This document shows, in pieces, positions 39,421-63,588 of a stretch of 64,000 bases of DNA. The position numbers and the translations under genes are program-made. The DNA is from a phage. A model generated the notes under the pieces. It saw only the letters and a list, made by a program, of their open reading frames with translations, had not been told where the DNA came from and made no database searches. Where the stretch lies: sequence record PZ386970.1. One strand, written 5' to 3'. The first letter of the stretch is position 1; each line of letters begins with the position of its first letter.

Positions 39421-39621
39421 TCACAAGTTACGTTTAAAAATTTCTGCTACTTCAAGAAGTTCTTCTTTAGTAGCTGTGTCGGTTTGTATTTTATATCGAA
39501 TTTCCTTAAAGCGTTCTTTAAAGGCTTCAGCTGATTCGATATCAAAAAATCTTTGGATAAGCCGGAATTCCCGGAGCACTGCTTTATCAAAAAGTTCCAA
39601 GTCCACGTTATATGTTCTCAT
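39421..39621 (-). CDS. hypothetical protein (rIIA.1-position)
   Basis: 66-aa ORF from track. Confidence 0.5.
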   Translation of the reverse strand: MRTYNVDLELFDKAVLREFRLIQRFFDIESAEAFKERFKEIRYKIQTDTATKEELLEVAEIFKRNL

Positions 39622-39713: not shown

Positions 39714-40814
39714 TTACGCTGTGAAGATTTTATCCCACATCGCAACAACTGCATCTCGATTATACTTCTTCCATACTGCTTCAGCACGTTTAACTCGAGC
39801 TTCGTATGTGTCAGTGAATTCTAATACAGCTTTTGTGTAAAGCGCAACTACTTCTTTCTTAGGAGTAGAAGAATCAATTTCTACACGCACAGTATCTGGG
39901 TCATATTCGAATGTCGCATGAGGATAATCCTTAAAAACTAACTGGATTACAGGGACACCTTTAGAGATGGCTTCAATAGAACTATTCTCTACCGTACCTG
40001 TGTCAGGACACGTATTAATAAGTGCTTTAGCTGTTTTAAGACGTTCCATAATTTCACTGTGTGGAGCATCAATAATAACAGGATATTTAGCTGGTGGTGC
40101 CCATTTACTAGGACAGTATCCTGCACCATTTTCGCCTAGTGCTTTAATCGCTTCAAGAGCAACATCAGTACGACGCATTTTAGTGTCATAACGTTGTGCA
40201 CTAATAATCAGATCAGTCGCCGGAAGAACTTCAGGTTTCTCATTCAAACAAATAACCGGATAATCTTCGGCTTCAAACAACGGATTTGCTCGCCAATAAT
40301 CATAATCAATTTTGTCAGTCAGTCCCGAAGTCATATAACAATATTTACGTTCAAATTCACGGAAGGCTTTAGTAGGAGCATAACTCTTACCACCATTCTT
40401 ATGAATTTGAATAGTCTGGTCCCAAATTTGAACAATGCCACGAGATACCGGCTCAAATGGTGTTGCCATAAAATTCTTATGAACTTTAGAGAGACCTGCG
40501 TCTTTAATTGCCTGAACGGTTAGTTTGGTCGGTTCCATTGTAACAACGAAATCGTACTCATTAATGCCGGCTAGTTCAACAATCTTACGAGCCATAGTAT
40601 AACTCATACCTAGACTGAATTTAGTCAGATGACCAACAGGATGATGATTAACCTTCCAATCACCAAATGTGTCATTATCAAAGCCGATATAATCAATATC
40701 AGCACCGATGGACACAAGATATTTCAACACATTTAAATGTACTGCTTCAAGACCACCTTGTACACGTTCTGGGTTAAATGGGACTGCGCGAGATGGGATA
40801 AACATAACTTTCAT
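39714..40814 (-). CDS. putative GT-B-fold glycosyltransferase (candidate DNA hydroxymethylcytosine sugar transferase)
   Basis: 366-aa ORF; N-terminus MKVMFIPSRAVPFNPERVQGGLEAV...IGADIDYIG and C-terminal block TGTVENSSIEAISKGVPVI resemble GT-B donor-binding motifs; not similar to T4 alpha- or beta-gt as recalled; sits where T4 carries gene 60. Confidence 0.5.
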   Translation of the reverse strand: MKVMFIPSRAVPFNPERVQGGLEAVHLNVLKYLVSIGADIDYIGFDNDTFGDWKVNHHPVGHLTKFSLGMSYTMARKIVELAGINEYDFVVTMEPTKLTVQAIKDAGLSKVHKNFMATPFEPVSRGIVQIWDQTIQIHKNGGKSYAPTKAFREFERKYCYMTSGLTDKIDYDYWRANPLFEAEDYPVICLNEKPEVLPATDLIISAQRYDTKMRRTDVALEAIKALGENGAGYCPSKWAPPAKYPVIIDAPHSEIMERLKTAKALINTCPDTGTVENSSIEAISKGVPVIQLVFKDYPHATFEYDPDTVRVEIDSSTPKKEVVALYTKAVLEFTDTYEARVKRAEAVWKKYNRDAVVAMWDKIFTA

Positions 40815-40837
40815 AATTAAGCCTTATTAAAATTAAA

Positions 40838-40858
40838 ATGAAGCTCCCGAAGGAGCTT
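40838..40858 (-). terminator. hairpin (AAGCUCC-UUCG-GGAGCUU) downstream of HNH endonuclease gene
   Basis: perfect stem with tetraloop followed by AT-rich tract. Confidence 0.45.
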
Positions 40859-41669
40859 AGGACATCCAACACATTTTATAACCTTTGCAGGTTCTGTTAG
40901 GATTATTTAATGCTTTCAATATATTAGAAGACCCTATACCTAAATACTCCCTTAATTCATAAAGATAGTTAAAATCAATAGTTTCACCTGTTTTTACACT
41001 TGTGATTCTTATAGGCCTTCTTTCATATTTAGATTTATACAACTCTCTAGTCTTAGCTTTAGTTTCTTCTGACCTAGGAGTGTATGGTTTAAATCCTTTT
41101 GTTTTAAATGTTTCCATTCTTGATTTAGTTATTTTATCCTGGTGTTCTTTTGTTTTTACAGGTGCTTTTCGCCCATTCTCCCAAGATAACTTGTTGGCCT
41201 GTATTATTTTATCTATTGCTTCTTGCGTATGAGTTTTACCATAAAATGGATTTAATTCGCCTATACGTTGTGAAGCAATATGTGACATTAATTCTCTTGT
41301 TGCTTTAGTATGTTTTTTACCTTTAAATGGGTTGCCATTTTTAGCAATCCATTCTTTCATAAATCTAGAGTGCTCTTTAGAGAATTCTTGTTTAAGCCAA
41401 TCATAATCTCTAGAATTTCTAGCTCCCATGTAAAAAGCTCTAATAGCCATAAGCGTAGAACGGTTCTTATGAATTTTATAAAGCAATAAATGGGCGATAA
41501 AATGCTCTCTAGGGGTCATTTTAACTAGATTTGATTTAGCATTACTCCCGCCCATAGATTTAGGCAAAATATGGTGAGTTTCAGTATAATTAGGAATAGT
41601 GCTGCGGTTTTTAGCCGCAGCGATAAGTTTATCATAAATTTTACGATAATTCATTATCCTAGCATCCAA
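40857..41669 (-). CDS. HNH-family homing endonuclease with NUMOD3 repeats (MobA-like position)
   Basis: 270-aa ORF; HNH motif ETHHILPKSMGGSNAKSNLVKMTPREHFIAH; repeated NUMOD3-like units NPFKGKKHTKATRELM / NPFYGKTHTQEAIDKI; probable start at internal ATG overlapping gene 39 stop. Confidence 0.8.
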   Translation of the reverse strand: MDARIMNYRKIYDKLIAAAKNRSTIPNYTETHHILPKSMGGSNAKSNLVKMTPREHFIAHLLLYKIHKNRSTLMAIRAFYMGARNSRDYDWLKQEFSKEHSRFMKEWIAKNGNPFKGKKHTKATRELMSHIASQRIGELNPFYGKTHTQEAIDKIIQANKLSWENGRKAPVKTKEHQDKITKSRMETFKTKGFKPYTPRSEETKAKTRELYKSKYERRPIRITSVKTGETIDFNYLYELREYLGIGSSNILKALNNPNRTCKGYKMCWMS

Positions 41670-43474
41670 TCTTTACGGAGTTCAGGGTCGTTACCCATGA
41701 GCATTTCAAATAGTTCTTTCCAATTTTCAGGAAGTTTAACTACGTCGTACACAGGGTTTTGAATCATTTCTTTATATTCATCCCGCTGAAGTGAGCCCAA
41801 TCCCTTGATGTATCGAATACTATGCTTAGGCAGTGTATCTTTAGCTTCTTCATACTCAGCTACAGTATAAAACCATTTTTGAGATTTGCCAATTTGTGCA
41901 ATAATTACAGGTGTTTTAACAAAGCGAATACGTCCTTGTTCAAACAATTCAGGCCAATTACTAAAGAAAGCAAGCAAAGCCGGATAGATACTTCCAAGAC
42001 CGTCATGATCGGCATCGGTCATAATTGCAATATTACGATAGTTCGTATTCTCTGCCTTTTCACCAAGAATAAGACCTGTGATAGCACAGATATCAAAGAG
42101 CTCTTTGTTCTTCATCATATCAGCATATGACATACCCCAGCTATTCATCACCTTACCACGTAACGGGAATCCACCATGTAGTTCACGGTCACGAACATCA
42201 ATGAGATAACCAATTGCCGAATCACCTTCTGTTAAGAACAATGTCGTATCTGCATCTTTACCACATTGGTTAGCTTTAATATGCTTATGAACCTTAGCTT
42301 TAGTTGCCTTTTTAGCTGCTTTAGTTTCTGCAGCCTTTTCTGCTGCCAATTTACGAGCTAATGCTGCTTCAACAATAGGCATAATCAAGGCTTCGTTTTT
42401 AAGAAGCGCCTGAGCAATTTTCTTAGCATCTAATTGGATATGATTACGAATATCACCATACGTTGACGTTAAACGTTCTTTAGTCTGAGAATCAAAACGC
42501 ATGTTGCTCATGTCTCTAATAAACATCAACATTGTGAGACATTCTTTAACACGAGCTTTAGTGACTTCAATACCCTTATATTTCTTTTTAATACCCGGCA
42601 AAAGATGTTCGCAGATATCATCCATTACACATTCAACATGATGACCGCCATTTTTAGTATGGATGTTATTAACATAAGTTAAATGACGGAAGCCATCTGG
42701 TGATGTTGTGAATGCTATAGAGACTTTATCATTTTCTTGAATGATGTTATCTTCACCAAATTGTTTAGCAAATCGTTTAAAATTACCATCAACCTTTTTA
42801 CCATTAAATGTGAACTTGATATCAGGATAAACGACTGCCAATGTTTGAAGTCGGTCTAAAGTAATATCTAAATAAATTTGAGATAAATTATGCTCTTCAA
42901 ATGAAGAGAAATCAGGAGTGAAGATTACTTTAGTGCCTTTACCTTTAGATTTCTTAGAAGACCATGATTTGTTTTCCATTCCATTTGAACAGTTAACAGT
43001 GATTTCATTTTCACCATCTGACGTGATGCCTGTAAACAACGTAGAGAAGATATTAGTTAAACTACTCCCGACGCCGTTCATACCACCAGTCTTGCGTTCA
43101 GAATCATCACCAAAGTTACCACCAGCTTTTGGAATAGTCCAGGCTGCTACAGGCCCAGGAATTTGTTCACCTGTTTGGTCGGTAACTAAACCTTGAGGAA
43201 TACCACGTCCGTTATCTTCAACCGAAACTTGATTATTTTTAATTTGCACATCAATTTTATTTGCAAACTTAAATGATGTACGAATAGCTTCATCAACTGA
43301 GTTGTCAATAATCTCATCGATTAATTTAACCAGGCCAGGAACATATTCAACTTGTTGATATTTACCAAACAAAAAACGCTCATGTGCTTCTTTGGCCGAA
43401 GAACCAATATACATACCACTACGTTTCTTAATATGTTCTACATCTGACAATACCTTAATTTCATTTTTAATCAT
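41654..43474 (-). CDS. 39: DNA topoisomerase II large subunit (GyrB-like ATPase + TOPRIM), unsplit 39/60
   Basis: 606-aa continuous ORF with GHKL ATPase N-terminus and TOPRIM C-terminus; no separate gene 60. Confidence 0.9.
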   Translation of the reverse strand: MIKNEIKVLSDVEHIKKRSGMYIGSSAKEAHERFLFGKYQQVEYVPGLVKLIDEIIDNSVDEAIRTSFKFANKIDVQIKNNQVSVEDNGRGIPQGLVTDQTGEQIPGPVAAWTIPKAGGNFGDDSERKTGGMNGVGSSLTNIFSTLFTGITSDGENEITVNCSNGMENKSWSSKKSKGKGTKVIFTPDFSSFEEHNLSQIYLDITLDRLQTLAVVYPDIKFTFNGKKVDGNFKRFAKQFGEDNIIQENDKVSIAFTTSPDGFRHLTYVNNIHTKNGGHHVECVMDDICEHLLPGIKKKYKGIEVTKARVKECLTMLMFIRDMSNMRFDSQTKERLTSTYGDIRNHIQLDAKKIAQALLKNEALIMPIVEAALARKLAAEKAAETKAAKKATKAKVHKHIKANQCGKDADTTLFLTEGDSAIGYLIDVRDRELHGGFPLRGKVMNSWGMSYADMMKNKELFDICAITGLILGEKAENTNYRNIAIMTDADHDGLGSIYPALLAFFSNWPELFEQGRIRFVKTPVIIAQIGKSQKWFYTVAEYEEAKDTLPKHSIRYIKGLGSLQRDEYKEMIQNPVYDVVKLPENWKELFEMLMGNDPELRKDWMLG

Positions 43475-43521
43475 GTTGTCTCCTCGTTATGAAGGTATTC
43501 TATCATCCGAAATCTAAAGCA

Positions 43522-43537
43522 AAAAGGGCCGAAGCCC
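43522..43537 (-). terminator. hairpin GGGC-UUCG-GCCC + U-tract
   Basis: short GC stem with tetraloop followed by TTTTTGC on minus strand, between 141-aa ORF and gene 39. Confidence 0.4.
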
Positions 43538-59817: not shown

Positions 59818-60186
59818 TTAAAAGAATTTAAATTTTTTCTTGGTCCGTTCATTAAAAGCTTGTTGTACTTGCATTGTAACACATTTTTCAACATGTGGTG
59901 CAAGTTCTGCTTTTCTGTCTTGGTCAAGAACTGCAAAGTCCATTACGATTTTACCATCAACCCAGTCTAGTTTTGTAATATAGACTATATGATGAGAACC
60001 ATCTTCAAGTGTAATCAGAATCTCTTGAATGACATTTTCCATTGCTGAACGGATAATTTTAAGAGATTCATTAAACACTCGTTCTTTGCGAATGTCTTCC
60101 CCTTCCGAAGAAGGGGATTCATCAACGATTTCTAGATTTAAATCATCAAGATTATTCATCGAAATCTTCCATTTCGTCAAGGTCAT
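59818..60186 (-). CDS. 40: gp40-position protein (head vertex assembly chaperone in T4)
   Basis: 122-aa ORF between uvsX and 41 as in T4 (uvsX-40-41 operon); assignment by synteny and size. Confidence 0.5.
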   Translation of the reverse strand: MTLTKWKISMNNLDDLNLEIVDESPSSEGEDIRKERVFNESLKIIRSAMENVIQEILITLEDGSHHIVYITKLDWVDGKIVMDFAVLDQDRKAELAPHVEKCVTMQVQQAFNERTKKKFKFF

Positions 60187-61324
60187 TTTCTATATCTGCT
60201 GCAGACGGAGCATCAGAAGTTTTAACCGGAACTTTAGTTGTTGCTTTGCAATTAATAAGGTCGTTAACAGCGTCATCAACTTCTTTAATAGAAGAGATAG
60301 CACCTAGTTTATATTTAGTTTCAATTGCATCTCGGAAAGGTTTGTGTTTAAACAACGGTCCCCAGAATTCTACACAATCAGTAGCTTTAGCACGCCACGA
60401 TTTCTCTTCACGAATCATTTCACCTGTTTCTTCGTCAAGGAATTCACGAGCATACCAACCAGCTTTAGGCTTAACAACAAATCCAATTTCAGTTGCCATT
60501 TCTAACAAGCCACTGAATGGGTCGATACCACCATCAAAATTAACTGTGATTGGGAAAGTAGATTTTTCTTTAACAGTACGAGATTTTTCTGCTTTCAACG
60601 TGAAGTCATAACCTGTCAATTCTGTACCTTCTTTAACCTGACGTTTAGAGATAAAGAATACAGTGTTAGCAGAGTAAAGAATACCTGTACCACCACCCAT
60701 AATCTCTTTAGGATACAATCCACCAATTTCCATTGCGGTATGGTTAATTGCAACACACGGAATATCTTTAATAGTCAGATACGGGGTCACAATACGGAAA
60801 AGAGATTTAAGTGCCTTAGCACGAGACATATCACCTACGACTTTCTCGTTCAATGCATCTTCGGTTTCTTTCTTAGATGCAGTATTACCGATTGAATCGA
60901 TAAAGATAATAACTTTATCACCGCGTTCAATTGCATCAAGCTGATTAGTCATATCAACTTTAAGTTGTTCGACGGACTGAATTGGTGTATGAACTACACG
61001 GTCTAAATCAACACCCATTGAACGGAAGTAAGATTCTGAAGCACCGAATTCCGAGTCATAAAACAAACAGATTGCATCTTTATATTTCTTCATATACGCT
61101 GCAACCATGGTCAGCCCAAACAATGTTTTAAAGTGTTTAGAAGGAGCAGCAAAAATAGTTAAGCCTGATTGCAACCCGGCATTCAGTGCACCACCTAATG
61201 CAATATTCAACATCGGAATACGAGTAGGGACTTCATCACGATTATTAAACAGCTTAGACTTAGTCAAGTCGGCAGTCATTTTAGAAGTAGAAGCTTTAAT
61301 CAGACGAGATTTTAAATCAGACAT
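60152..61324 (-). CDS. uvsX: UvsX recombinase (RecA-like)
   Basis: 390-aa ORF; N-terminus MSDLKSRLIKASTSK and long blocks (DAIERG.KV..FIDS.GN.ASKKETEDALNEKVV.DM.RAK..KSLFRIVTPY) match T4 UvsX. Confidence 0.9.
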   Translation of the reverse strand: MSDLKSRLIKASTSKMTADLTKSKLFNNRDEVPTRIPMLNIALGGALNAGLQSGLTIFAAPSKHFKTLFGLTMVAAYMKKYKDAICLFYDSEFGASESYFRSMGVDLDRVVHTPIQSVEQLKVDMTNQLDAIERGDKVIIFIDSIGNTASKKETEDALNEKVVGDMSRAKALKSLFRIVTPYLTIKDIPCVAINHTAMEIGGLYPKEIMGGGTGILYSANTVFFISKRQVKEGTELTGYDFTLKAEKSRTVKEKSTFPITVNFDGGIDPFSGLLEMATEIGFVVKPKAGWYAREFLDEETGEMIREEKSWRAKATDCVEFWGPLFKHKPFRDAIETKYKLGAISSIKEVDDAVNDLINCKATTKVPVKTSDAPSAADIENDLDEMEDFDE

Positions 61325-61422: not shown

Positions 61423-61971
61423 TTAACGAGCCCATTTAATGATTTCTGTAATCAAATAATTACGTTCGCTTGCATTAAATCCTATAACTTTGTTAGCACC
61501 ATCATGATTAAGTAATTGATACGTTTGGATTTTGTTATGAATTGCAAACTCTTCAAAATATGAAATGACTGTATTAAAACCGAATGAAGACAAAGTAATA
61601 AGGTCGTCTTCAAAACTTTCAGTCATTTCGTTACGTGTTAAAATAATTGTGAACACATCATGGTTTTGGCAAAGACGAACATAATCCTGTTCATAAACGT
61701 CAAGAACCGAGTCCACATCTTGTCGAATACGTCCATAAACCCAGTTACTAATATATCCACGGTCTAACAGATAAATCTTAGTAGGGTCTAAATAATTCAA
61801 CATCGTTTCGAAACAACCAACTTCATTTCGAGACTTAACATCGAAACGCCCATCAACTGTTCGTTTAGGGAAATCAATCTTTACATATCTTTCACTAATT
61901 TCCATTATGTCATTAATGAAAGTTGTTTTACCAGCATTATCTGGGCCGTCTACTAAAATAATTTTAGCCAT
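61423..61971 (-). CDS. P-loop nucleoside/nucleotide kinase-like protein
   Basis: 182-aa ORF with N-terminal Walker A (ILVDGPDNAGKTT); occupies part of the locus where T4 encodes beta-glucosyltransferase. Confidence 0.5.
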   Translation of the reverse strand: MAKIILVDGPDNAGKTTFINDIMEISERYVKIDFPKRTVDGRFDVKSRNEVGCFETMLNYLDPTKIYLLDRGYISNWVYGRIRQDVDSVLDVYEQDYVRLCQNHDVFTIILTRNEMTESFEDDLITLSSFGFNTVISYFEEFAIHNKIQTYQLLNHDGANKVIGFNASERNYLITEIIKWAR

Positions 61972-61972
61972 T

Positions 61973-62872
61973 TTATTCCTCGATTACGACATCTTCGTAT
62001 TTAGGTATATTATACGGTGAAGAAATTAAAGCATTAAAGTAGATGAACTCACCAAGACCTGGATGGAATACTTCTTCAGGATTTTCGAAATATTGAATTT
62101 TCGGACGTCCTTTAAGAATTTGATAGTACTCAGTTTTAGTTGGATTAAAAATTCGAATCAGCGCTTCTTCAGGATACTTATTTCTGTCGAAACTATTATT
62201 TGGATCAGTTATATAAAGCGGTTGACCTAATTGAATTGCGCATTCAACAACTTGTTCAAAACGATAGCATGGGTCACTAATTCGAAATGGATGAAAAATA
62301 CCATCTAGATGAATAGGAGCCAAATCACCTACAAGACGCTGCATGATGGAAGGACGTATAACTTTCTGAGTTACGATAATCTTATTACCATCTGCACCTG
62401 CGTTAACCAGCACTTCTTTTTGACGTTCATTCAACACAGTAGTTTGAAGTGAACGATTAACTGACAACATATCGGTTTTTAAGAATTCGTCAATATAAAA
62501 ACGTGGTTTATTAGGGTCTGCCGTGATATTGAAATTGAATTCTACATCAAAAGCGCCGTCATATCCAGTGATATCTGTTATTAGAAAATCACAATCATAA
62601 TAAGCAATTAATGAATCAACCACAAATTCATTTTCAGACCAGAAATATTTACGAGTGTTATACGCGTTATCTTTATACCATAATGGAACAAACTTAAATT
62701 CCGGGAAAAGACGTTCACATTCTTTAATATCAGATGCATTACGTGGATATGTAATCACATCACCCGGATTAGCACGGTGCAAATGAAGTTGGAAGTTGCC
62801 ATCCTTAAGGATAGCATACTGTCCAGTTTCATAAGACCGCATACTCAAGATTGGTACGCGGAAAATAGCCAT
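61973..62872 (-). CDS. hypothetical protein (non-T4 gene at beta-gt locus)
   Basis: 299-aa ORF; no similarity to T4 beta-gt as recalled. Confidence 0.5.
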   Translation of the reverse strand: MAIFRVPILSMRSYETGQYAILKDGNFQLHLHRANPGDVITYPRNASDIKECERLFPEFKFVPLWYKDNAYNTRKYFWSENEFVVDSLIAYYDCDFLITDITGYDGAFDVEFNFNITADPNKPRFYIDEFLKTDMLSVNRSLQTTVLNERQKEVLVNAGADGNKIIVTQKVIRPSIMQRLVGDLAPIHLDGIFHPFRISDPCYRFEQVVECAIQLGQPLYITDPNNSFDRNKYPEEALIRIFNPTKTEYYQILKGRPKIQYFENPEEVFHPGLGEFIYFNALISSPYNIPKYEDVVIEE

Positions 62873-63588
62873 TAGTCAAGGAATCCTTTAACATAATCAA
62901 AATCACGTTCAAACACATGGGCACTTACCATGGTATGAGTATAATCACCAACTTCTACACCACATTCGTTAGCGATATAATGAAGTAATTTTCCTTGGAG
63001 ATAAAAATCCAACTGCATAACAACAGCACAATTCTGAGAACGCATATGACAGTGGGTATAAAGCTTACCATCACGAATATAATAAGTCACTGAGTCAGTA
63101 CATGGATATTCAAGCGTTTCGTCCGAATCAAGCAAAGCCTGATCAGAACTTTCTAGAATTTGGAACACAACTCTTCGGGAGTTAGGCTTCTCTTTAAGTT
63201 CTTTTAGAAGAGCTGGTAATTGGGCCGCAATTCGAGGACCATAGAAAGTGTTGAAGTTCGCAGGCAAAGCATCTGATTTTGGTTTAGAAATAAATTTAGC
63301 GACATTAGGATATGCCTTAAACGCTTCTTCTGCATCAGTACCACCAGAAATCATAAACTTCCAGAAATCTTCGGCATATTCATAAGAGATGCGGTTAATA
63401 CGTGGGTCGGTCATTTTGAATGATGATGGAGTGTCAACAACTACTGTCATGGACCCAATTTCATTACAACGTCCAATACGAGAATCAGTTACGAATTCCG
63501 GGTTTTCTAAAATTTCACGATTGACTGCTTTAAATGCGGCTTGAAAATCTGCTGCTTTGATATATTTCATTGTGTTATGTTTTCCCAT
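62872..63588 (-). CDS. thymidylate-synthase-fold pyrimidine hydroxymethylase, divergent gene 42 homologue
   Basis: 238-aa ORF; catalytic Cys block EYPCTDSVTYYIRD and downstream Asp (QLDFY) align with T4 dCMP hydroxymethylase Cys148/Asp179, but overall similarity to T4 gp42 is only ~30% by eye. Confidence 0.6.
   Translation of the reverse strand: MGKHNTMKYIKAADFQAAFKAVNREILENPEFVTDSRIGRCNEIGSMTVVVDTPSSFKMTDPRINRISYEYAEDFWKFMISGGTDAEEAFKAYPNVAKFISKPKSDALPANFNTFYGPRIAAQLPALLKELKEKPNSRRVVFQILESSDQALLDSDETLEYPCTDSVTYYIRDGKLYTHCHMRSQNCAVVMQLDFYLQGKLLHYIANECGVEVGDYTHTMVSAHVFERDFDYVKGFLD

Follow-up and report, generated by a model that had tools for sequence, protein, structure and literature searches.

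The window analysed here is a stretch of 64,000 nucleotides of DNA from a Mosigvirus (sequence record PZ386970.1). Between rIIA.1 and gene 39 it contains an open reading frame of 366 amino acids, ORF366, which is the subject of this study; the features of the locus, and those of a second region considered below, are collected in Table 1. A sequence-only reading of the same DNA had noted this frame by its N-terminus and a C-terminal block, had placed it between rIIA.1 and gene 39, and had pointed out that T4 has gene 60 and mobA at this position. The frame is present as described, beginning with MKVMFIPSRAVPFNPERVQGGLEAV (MKVMFIPSR...GGLEAV) and carrying TGTVENSSIEAISKGVPVI near residue 272 and the C-terminal block VENSSIEAISKGVPVI, and the T4 order at the equivalent locus is indeed rIIA, rIIA.1, 60, 60.1, mobA, 39. 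The placement is correct but incomplete, since an additional HNH/NUMOD3 gene, which that reading did not mention, lies between ORF366 and gene 39.

The frame is preceded by a Shine-Dalgarno sequence. With the base composition of the window, 366 stop-free codons would arise by chance with a probability of about 3.5e-11 per start position, and about 4e-6 such frames would be expected over the whole window. The GC content of ORF366 (0.39) and its GC3 (0.26) are in the same range as those of the neighbouring core genes. It should be noted that gene 39 is here a single frame, corresponding to the undivided topoisomerase large subunit of RB69; unlike in T4, there is neither a gene 60 split nor a translational-bypass element.

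Table 1. Position of the features discussed in the text, numbered from the first letter of the window.
Feature	Position	Strand	Description
rIIA.1	39421-39621		Downstream of ORF366, followed by rIIA; Pfam T4_RIIA1 E = 3.7e-30
ORF366	39714-40814	minus	366 aa, ATG start
Spacer before ORF366	40815-40858	minus	42-nt intergenic; hairpin, T-run, then AAGG Shine-Dalgarno 8 nt upstream of the ATG
GC-rich hairpin AAGCTCCTTCGGGAGCTT and T-run	40841-40858	minus	UUCG-type tetraloop; overlaps HNH stop codon; terminator-like site
HNH/NUMOD3 homing endonuclease gene	40857-41654/41669	minus	PHROG 655; 265-270 aa; free-standing
Gene 39	41654-43474	minus	606 aa; upstream of ORF366 and the HNH gene
MotA-box middle-promoter-like site (TTTTGCTTTA-N12-TAGAAT)	43497-43524	minus	Pattern match, upstream of gene 39
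uvsX	60152-61324		
RB69 gp45 ortholog, predicted nucleotide kinase	61423-61971	minus	182 aa; 178/182 (98%) to RB69p045
RB69 gp46:47 ortholog, proposed first (alpha) arabinosyltransferase	61973-62872	minus	299 aa
RB69 gp48 ortholog, thymidylate-synthase homologue, 5-hydroxy-dCMP synthase	62872-63588	minus	238 aa; 237/238 to RB69p048

The HNH gene, which separates ORF366 from gene 39 in the window and is found in neither RB69 nor phage CAU_ECP01, is more AT-rich than its neighbours (GC 0.32). Its true start is likely the ATG at 41654, which overlaps the stop codon of gene 39; in T4 the slot is occupied by the defective mobA. Of 166 matching phage records, 28 contain the gene, among them that of Yersinia phage fPS-90, a Tequatrovirus, whose DNA is 99.8% identical to that of the window over the whole 886-nt query. 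So high an identity indicates that the gene has recently moved by homing from one genus to another, into the site that follows gene 39 in both. The homing endonuclease is named 'gene 003c' in fPS-90 and vB_EcoM_F1, and it was on this account suspected that some Mosigviruses are without ORF366. This was rejected: fPS-90 is annotated as a Tequatrovirus, so that the absence of ORF366 there is expected, and vB_EcoM_F1/FN is assumed, from its near-identical coordinates, to be the same case.

In fPS-90 a terminator is annotated at the position corresponding to the hairpin in the ORF366 spacer. Lying upstream of the ORF366 ribosome-binding site, the hairpin may act as a partial terminator or as an mRNA-stabilising element. 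A 'predicted middle promoter' is likewise annotated in fPS-90 at the place equivalent to the MotA-box-like site, and a pattern search found no late promoter (TATAAATA) between this site and ORF366. We infer that the site is the putative source of a transcript shared by gene 39, the HNH gene and ORF366; ORF366 would then probably be expressed early or middle, together with gene 39.

The second region of interest lies directly after uvsX, at the place taken in T4 by segA, beta-gt and gene 42. Here the window contains three genes of the RB69 modification cluster, the orthologs of gp45, gp46:47 and gp48, which thus co-occur with ORF366 in the window (61423-63588); the window stops short of the genes for sugar activation (RB69 gp51-55). 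In Mosigvirus, ORF366 is about 21 kb from this arabinosylation cluster. The RB69 record annotates gp45 as a thymidylate kinase, and Table 1 of PMC13326640 gives it as a nucleotide kinase. The 299-residue frame is intact and matches both RB69p047 (99%) and RB69p046 (98%) in one frame, which is independent confirmation that the division into gp46 and gp47 comes from a frameshift or a sequencing error in the RB69 reference record; it is also called an error in PMC13326640. The gp46:47 ortholog has no Pfam match, and the idea that it and ORF366 are paralogues was rejected as there is no similarity between them (BLASTP E = 1.6). The gp48 ortholog matches Pfam Thymidylat_synt (E = 2.4e-15), and the activity of RB69 gp48 has been shown experimentally (PMC13326640). 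Where beta-gt would normally lie, between uvsX and the homologue of gene 42, the window has the gp45 and gp46:47 orthologs, and tblastn with the T4 beta-gt and alpha-gt proteins found no homologue of either in the window (best E 3.8 and 1.5; none on ORF366), as the sequence-only reading had said of beta-gt at its usual locus.

Identity and distribution of the family

ORF366 is identical to RB69p003 (RB69 ORF003c/gp3, NP_861693.1) at 363 of 366 positions (99%). It shares 98% of its residues, from end to end, with the PDB sequences 9IQZ and 9IR0, and all of them (100%) with a protein of phage CAU_ECP01 that is annotated as 'hypothetical protein'. The two PDB entries, 9IQZ being the apo form and 9IR0 the form with UDP, are named 'phage HY126 glycosyltransferase' in the Foldseek library and were released on 2025-07-16. 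The RB69 and HY126 proteins have the length and the locus (rIIA.1 - gene 39) of ORF366, and differ from it by three to eight conservative substitutions. Judged by these likenesses, ORF366 is the ortholog of both.

The comparison with RB69, which had been suggested on first inspection, also bears on a statement made at that time, namely that a putative hmC arabinosyltransferase had been reported from about this position in RB69-type phages. One half of it stands: arabinose is present in RB69 DNA, and ORF003c, at 99% identity the ortholog of ORF366, was proposed as the arabinosyltransferase on the basis of HHpred and Phyre2 (Thomas et al. 2018, PMC6024577). The other half does not, as the modified base of RB69-type phages is not hmC; it is 5-hydroxycytosine, which is made by gp48 and carries the arabinose (Lee et al. 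2026, PMC13326640; PMC13390438). The finding of ORF366 is thus already known, the protein having been predicted in 2018, a 98%-identical ortholog crystallised in 2025, and the pathway published in 2025-2026.

The whole of ORF366 (residues 1-366 of 366) matches PHROG 8302, a group of unknown function, with E = 1.6e-222. A tblastn search of 50,697 phage records found the family in 212. About 156 of these are Escherichia or Shigella phages, with at least 95% identity to ORF366, and 55 are Acinetobacter phages, with about 43% identity and two places per record. One record, with an organism name starting 'Tegunavirus', also matches and lies outside both Mosigvirus and the Acinetobacter phages; apart from it, the family is found in Mosigvirus (one copy) and Acinetobacter phages (two copies) only. 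The family is tiny, its profile matching 12 proteins at E <= 1e-3 among 1.84 billion cluster representatives; its most divergent members, P0008 and P0010, lie on short contigs. It is confined to phages with the 5-hydroxy-C arabinosylation cluster.

Among the Mosigvirus matches listed, all but one label the gene 'hypothetical protein', the exception being 'ATP-binding protein', and some of the Acinetobacter homologues are annotated as 'putative DNA alpha-glucosyltransferase'. Set against the literature of 2025-2026, these labels are out of date, and the practical value of the present analysis is the correct annotation of the approximately 156 near-identical Mosigvirus records.

Fold and relation to GT4 enzymes

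Family databases give little indication of what ORF366 is. No Pfam family matched at E <= 1, the GT4 models (Glyco_transf_4 and Glycos_transf_1) included, and no NCBIfam family matched at E <= 10; members of the ORF366 family give only sub-threshold GT4-conflict matches in Pfam. A HMMER profile of the family, run against PDB sequences, found the HY126 entries only. The affinity to GT4 is visible only by fold search or by HH-type comparison, and HHpred E values of 1e-24 to 1e-27 against GT4 structures were reported for RB69 ORF003c (Thomas et al. 2018, PMC6024577).

For the fold search an AlphaFold2 model was made from a 6-sequence alignment and used at the level of fold only. Its mean pLDDT is 62, with a good C-terminal domain, a poorly modelled N-domain and residues 115-188 below 50; strands and helices alternate in both halves. 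Foldseek returned 190 matches at E <= 1e-3. First came 9IR0 and 9IQZ (E ~1e-52), followed at E ~1e-8 mainly by glycosyltransferases of the GT4 type, among them BshA, PimA, WaaG, BGluT (tetrahydrobiopterin glucosyltransferase), LmbT and SenB. In the top 50, all 48 matches after the HY126 entries have the GT-B fold (46 glycosyltransferase chains, the remainder being UDP-GlcNAc 2-epimerases).

A second line of evidence is the alignment of the family profile with P0015, one of two weak outliers, which itself matches Pfam Glyco_transf_4 (PF13439) with 31.9 bits against a cut-off of 28.5. In hhalign the two align over 344 columns with a probability of 98.3% (E = 1.7e-14). Aligned are the N-terminal GG loop (G20, G21) and the 'GR...K' motif, the latter with the invariant R208 and R214, while the second Glu of EX7E corresponds to the invariant E281; invariance was judged across 10 members of the family that are 35-43% identical. 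The first Glu of EX7E falls on an invariant glycine, Gly273, and an invariant glutamate, Glu276, lies three residues further on, giving an E-x4-E spacing. Glu94 is the invariant acid of the N-domain.

The GT-B-like fold proposed from the letters alone is therefore borne out by Foldseek, and by an HH comparison with a protein that Pfam places in GT4, these being the checks that had been recommended. A relation of ORF366 to GT4 at the level of the superfamily is supported by profile and model together. ORF366 nevertheless differs from GT4 as formally defined in two respects, in that it does not match the Pfam models and does not have the canonical EX7E motif.

A probable role in adding the second sugar, and the alternatives

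Arabinosylated 5-hydroxycytosine is a recently recognised hypermodification of phage DNA. In RB69 it takes the form beta-D-Araf-(1-3)-alpha-D-Araf-5-O-dC, together with a mono form (Lee et al. 2026, PMC13326640), the disaccharide being the major modification in virions of the RB69 type. Mosigviruses in general carry mono- plus di-arabinosyl-5-hydroxy-dC (PMC13326640, PMC13390438, PMC12923530), and Bas46 and Bas47 are doubly arabinosylated (PMC12923530); the DNA of Acinetobacter phage DLP3 is tri-arabinosylated (PMC13326640). For RB69 it has been proposed that gp46:47 is the first transferase and that gp3 is 'beta-arabinosyltransferase 2' (Lee et al. 2026, PMC13326640). In the literature searched we found no assay of RB69 gp3 or of the ORF366 protein, and in PMC13326640 the role is a proposal only. 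It has also been reported that deletion of an arabinosyltransferase, Aat, sensitised Bas46 to a defence system (PMC13216743).

Amongst the evidence for a role in chain extension is the distribution of the two candidate transferases. Members of the gp46:47 family are present in 349 phage records, from Escherichia, Acinetobacter, Klebsiella, Serratia, Enterobacter, Proteus, Yersinia and other genera, and about 137 phage records have a gp46:47-type gene and the cluster without an ORF366 homologue. The number of ORF366-family copies (0, 1, 2) tracks the reported chain length, which is 1 in Thanatos, 2 in RB69, NP and Bas46/47, and 3 in DLP3. This, with the distribution being narrower than that of gp46:47, supports chain extension and argues against the suggestion of 2018 that the protein is the primary transferase. 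Added to this is the arrangement in Acinetobacter phage Maestro, in which two homologues of ORF366, 077 (41%) and 078 (43%), which are 56% identical to each other, are inside the arabinosylation cluster and adjoin the kinase, a gp46:47-like gene and a ThyA-like gene. By gene order, these correspond to DLP3 gp76 and gp77. Supplied with UDP-Araf in vitro, the two DLP3 proteins jointly extend the sugar chain on RB69 DNA by a third arabinose; each is inactive alone, and the pair is inactive on bare 5-hydroxy-C DNA (PMC13326640).

Taken together, the phyletic pattern, the synteny and what the Acinetobacter paralogues do make it probable that the product of ORF366 is the second, chain-extending arabinosyltransferase. 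For the fuller reading, that it is a soluble GT-B glycosyltransferase, distantly related to GT4, which adds the second arabinose on phage DNA in a pathway as has been proposed, we would put the probability at roughly 0.7.

The pathway would then run as follows. Deoxycytidine would be replaced by 5-hydroxy-dC, which the gp48 ortholog would synthesise at the level of the mononucleotide, as has been shown for RB69 gp48. Another enzyme would attach a first alpha-D-arabinofuranose to the 5-OH, and the gp46:47 ortholog is the candidate proposed for this step. The ORF366 protein would bind UDP-arabinofuranose in its C-terminal Rossmann domain, where R208 and R214 are the putative diphosphate pair, E281 would contact the ribose of the nucleotide and E276 would lie near the sugar, and would transfer a second arabinofuranose to O3 of the arabinose already on the DNA, giving beta-D-Araf-(1-3)-alpha-D-Araf-5-O-dC. 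According to the literature, the thicker sugar coat makes the DNA resistant to restriction enzymes, DNA glycosylases and CRISPR nucleases.

The best surviving alternative is that ORF366 is the primary enzyme, which joins the modified cytosine directly to its first arabinose, as was proposed by Thomas et al. (2018). HHpred and Phyre2 found ORF003c to be the sole GT-like protein of RB69 at that time (PMC6024577), and TH1_063, the gp46:47 homologue of Thanatos, has been reported to be a UDP-xylose pyrophosphorylase, that is, a sugar-nucleotide enzyme and not a transferase (PMC12838424). The latter report conflicts with the proposal made for gp46:47, whose place as the first transferase is therefore less than certain. 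The alternative is nevertheless unlikely, given the 137 or so records that have the cluster and no ORF366 homologue, the single pentose on the DNA of Thanatos, which has no member of the family, the relation of copy number to chain length, and the fact that the Acinetobacter paralogues extend arabinosylated RB69 DNA and leave bare 5-hydroxy-C DNA unchanged (PMC13326640).

A further suggestion is that the ORF366 protein has little activity alone and works only in a complex with another transferase, as is the case for DLP3 gp76 and gp77, which are active only together (PMC13326640). There being one family member per Mosigvirus, a heterodimer of paralogues is impossible, although a partnership with gp46:47 would be compatible with what is known; the residues presumed to serve in catalysis and in binding the donor do not vary within the family, and one of the two HY126 crystal structures contains UDP. 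We consider an obligate complex quite improbable. Least probable of all, and hardly to be credited, is an acceptor other than DNA (be it a glycan of the host envelope, a protein or some small molecule) with no role in DNA modification: the closest structural neighbours (PimA, WaaG, BshA, BGluT) do use lipids, LPS or small molecules, and the Mosigvirus gene is far from the cluster, but both Acinetobacter homologues are embedded in it, DNA is the substrate of the DLP3 paralogues in vitro (PMC13326640), and the family occurs solely in phages possessing this cluster.

If ORF366 does extend the chain, there is a stereochemical difficulty. The linkage attributed to the second-sugar step is beta-D-Araf (PMC13326640). 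With the first arabinose alpha and the second beta, both presumably from one UDP-Araf donor, and with both candidate enzymes resembling retaining GT4 enzymes, one of the two must have the opposite stereochemical outcome. The altered EX7E motif might be related to this puzzle. It may be speculated, although the odds are against it, that ORF366 is an inverting enzyme, in which a scaffold of the GT4 kind has been adapted to the furanose-specific extension of a sugar carried on DNA, with Gly273/Glu276 and Glu94 as its marks; if true, this would amount to a new family at the level of CAZy.

The question is important because DNA with arabinosyl-5-hydroxycytosine is resistant to many restriction enzymes, to the Brig1 glycosylase and to certain CRISPR systems, and because arabinosylation affects candidates for phage therapy and the sequencing of their genomes. 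Once the gene that sets the chain length is known, the mono, di or tri state can be predicted from the genome alone.

Comparison with known systems

Apart from its orthologs in RB69 and HY126, the closest known counterparts of ORF366 are DLP3 gp76 and gp77 (beta-arabinosyltransferases 2/3), which belong to the same family, with 41-43% full-length identity and the same invariant motifs, and which act on arabinosylated 5-hydroxy-C DNA with UDP-Araf (PMC13326640). The differences are in arrangement and outcome. The DLP3 genes are a duplicated pair inside the cluster, both of which are needed for the third arabinose, whereas the Mosigvirus gene is single and distant from the cluster, and the chain ends at two sugars.

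Amongst cellular enzymes, the retaining GT4 proteins PimA, WaaG, BshA and MshA align with ORF366 in the GG loop, the basic pair and the second Glu of EX7E, at an identity of 11-14%. They have the first Glu of EX7E, where the ORF366 family has Gly273 with Glu276 nearby, and the acceptor proposed for ORF366, unlike theirs, is a sugar on DNA.

The alpha- and beta-glucosyltransferases of T4 (GT72 and GT63, respectively) are similar to ORF366 in having the GT-B fold and, if its proposed role is right, in using UDP-sugar donors and protecting phage DNA, and differ from it in acceptor, sugar and genomic locus. ORF366 has no detectable sequence similarity to either, and as an ortholog of RB69 ORF003c it agrees with the original suggestion of a DNA sugar transferase of a different family. 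The beta-glucosyl-HMC-alpha-glucosyltransferase of T2 and T6 is the gentiobiose-forming second transferase of the T-even phages. By analogy, ORF366 would follow the same logic, in which a sugar is added onto a sugar already present on a modified cytosine in duplex DNA; the T2/T6 enzyme works with hmC and UDP-glucose, whereas 5-hydroxy-C and UDP-arabinofuranose are proposed for ORF366.
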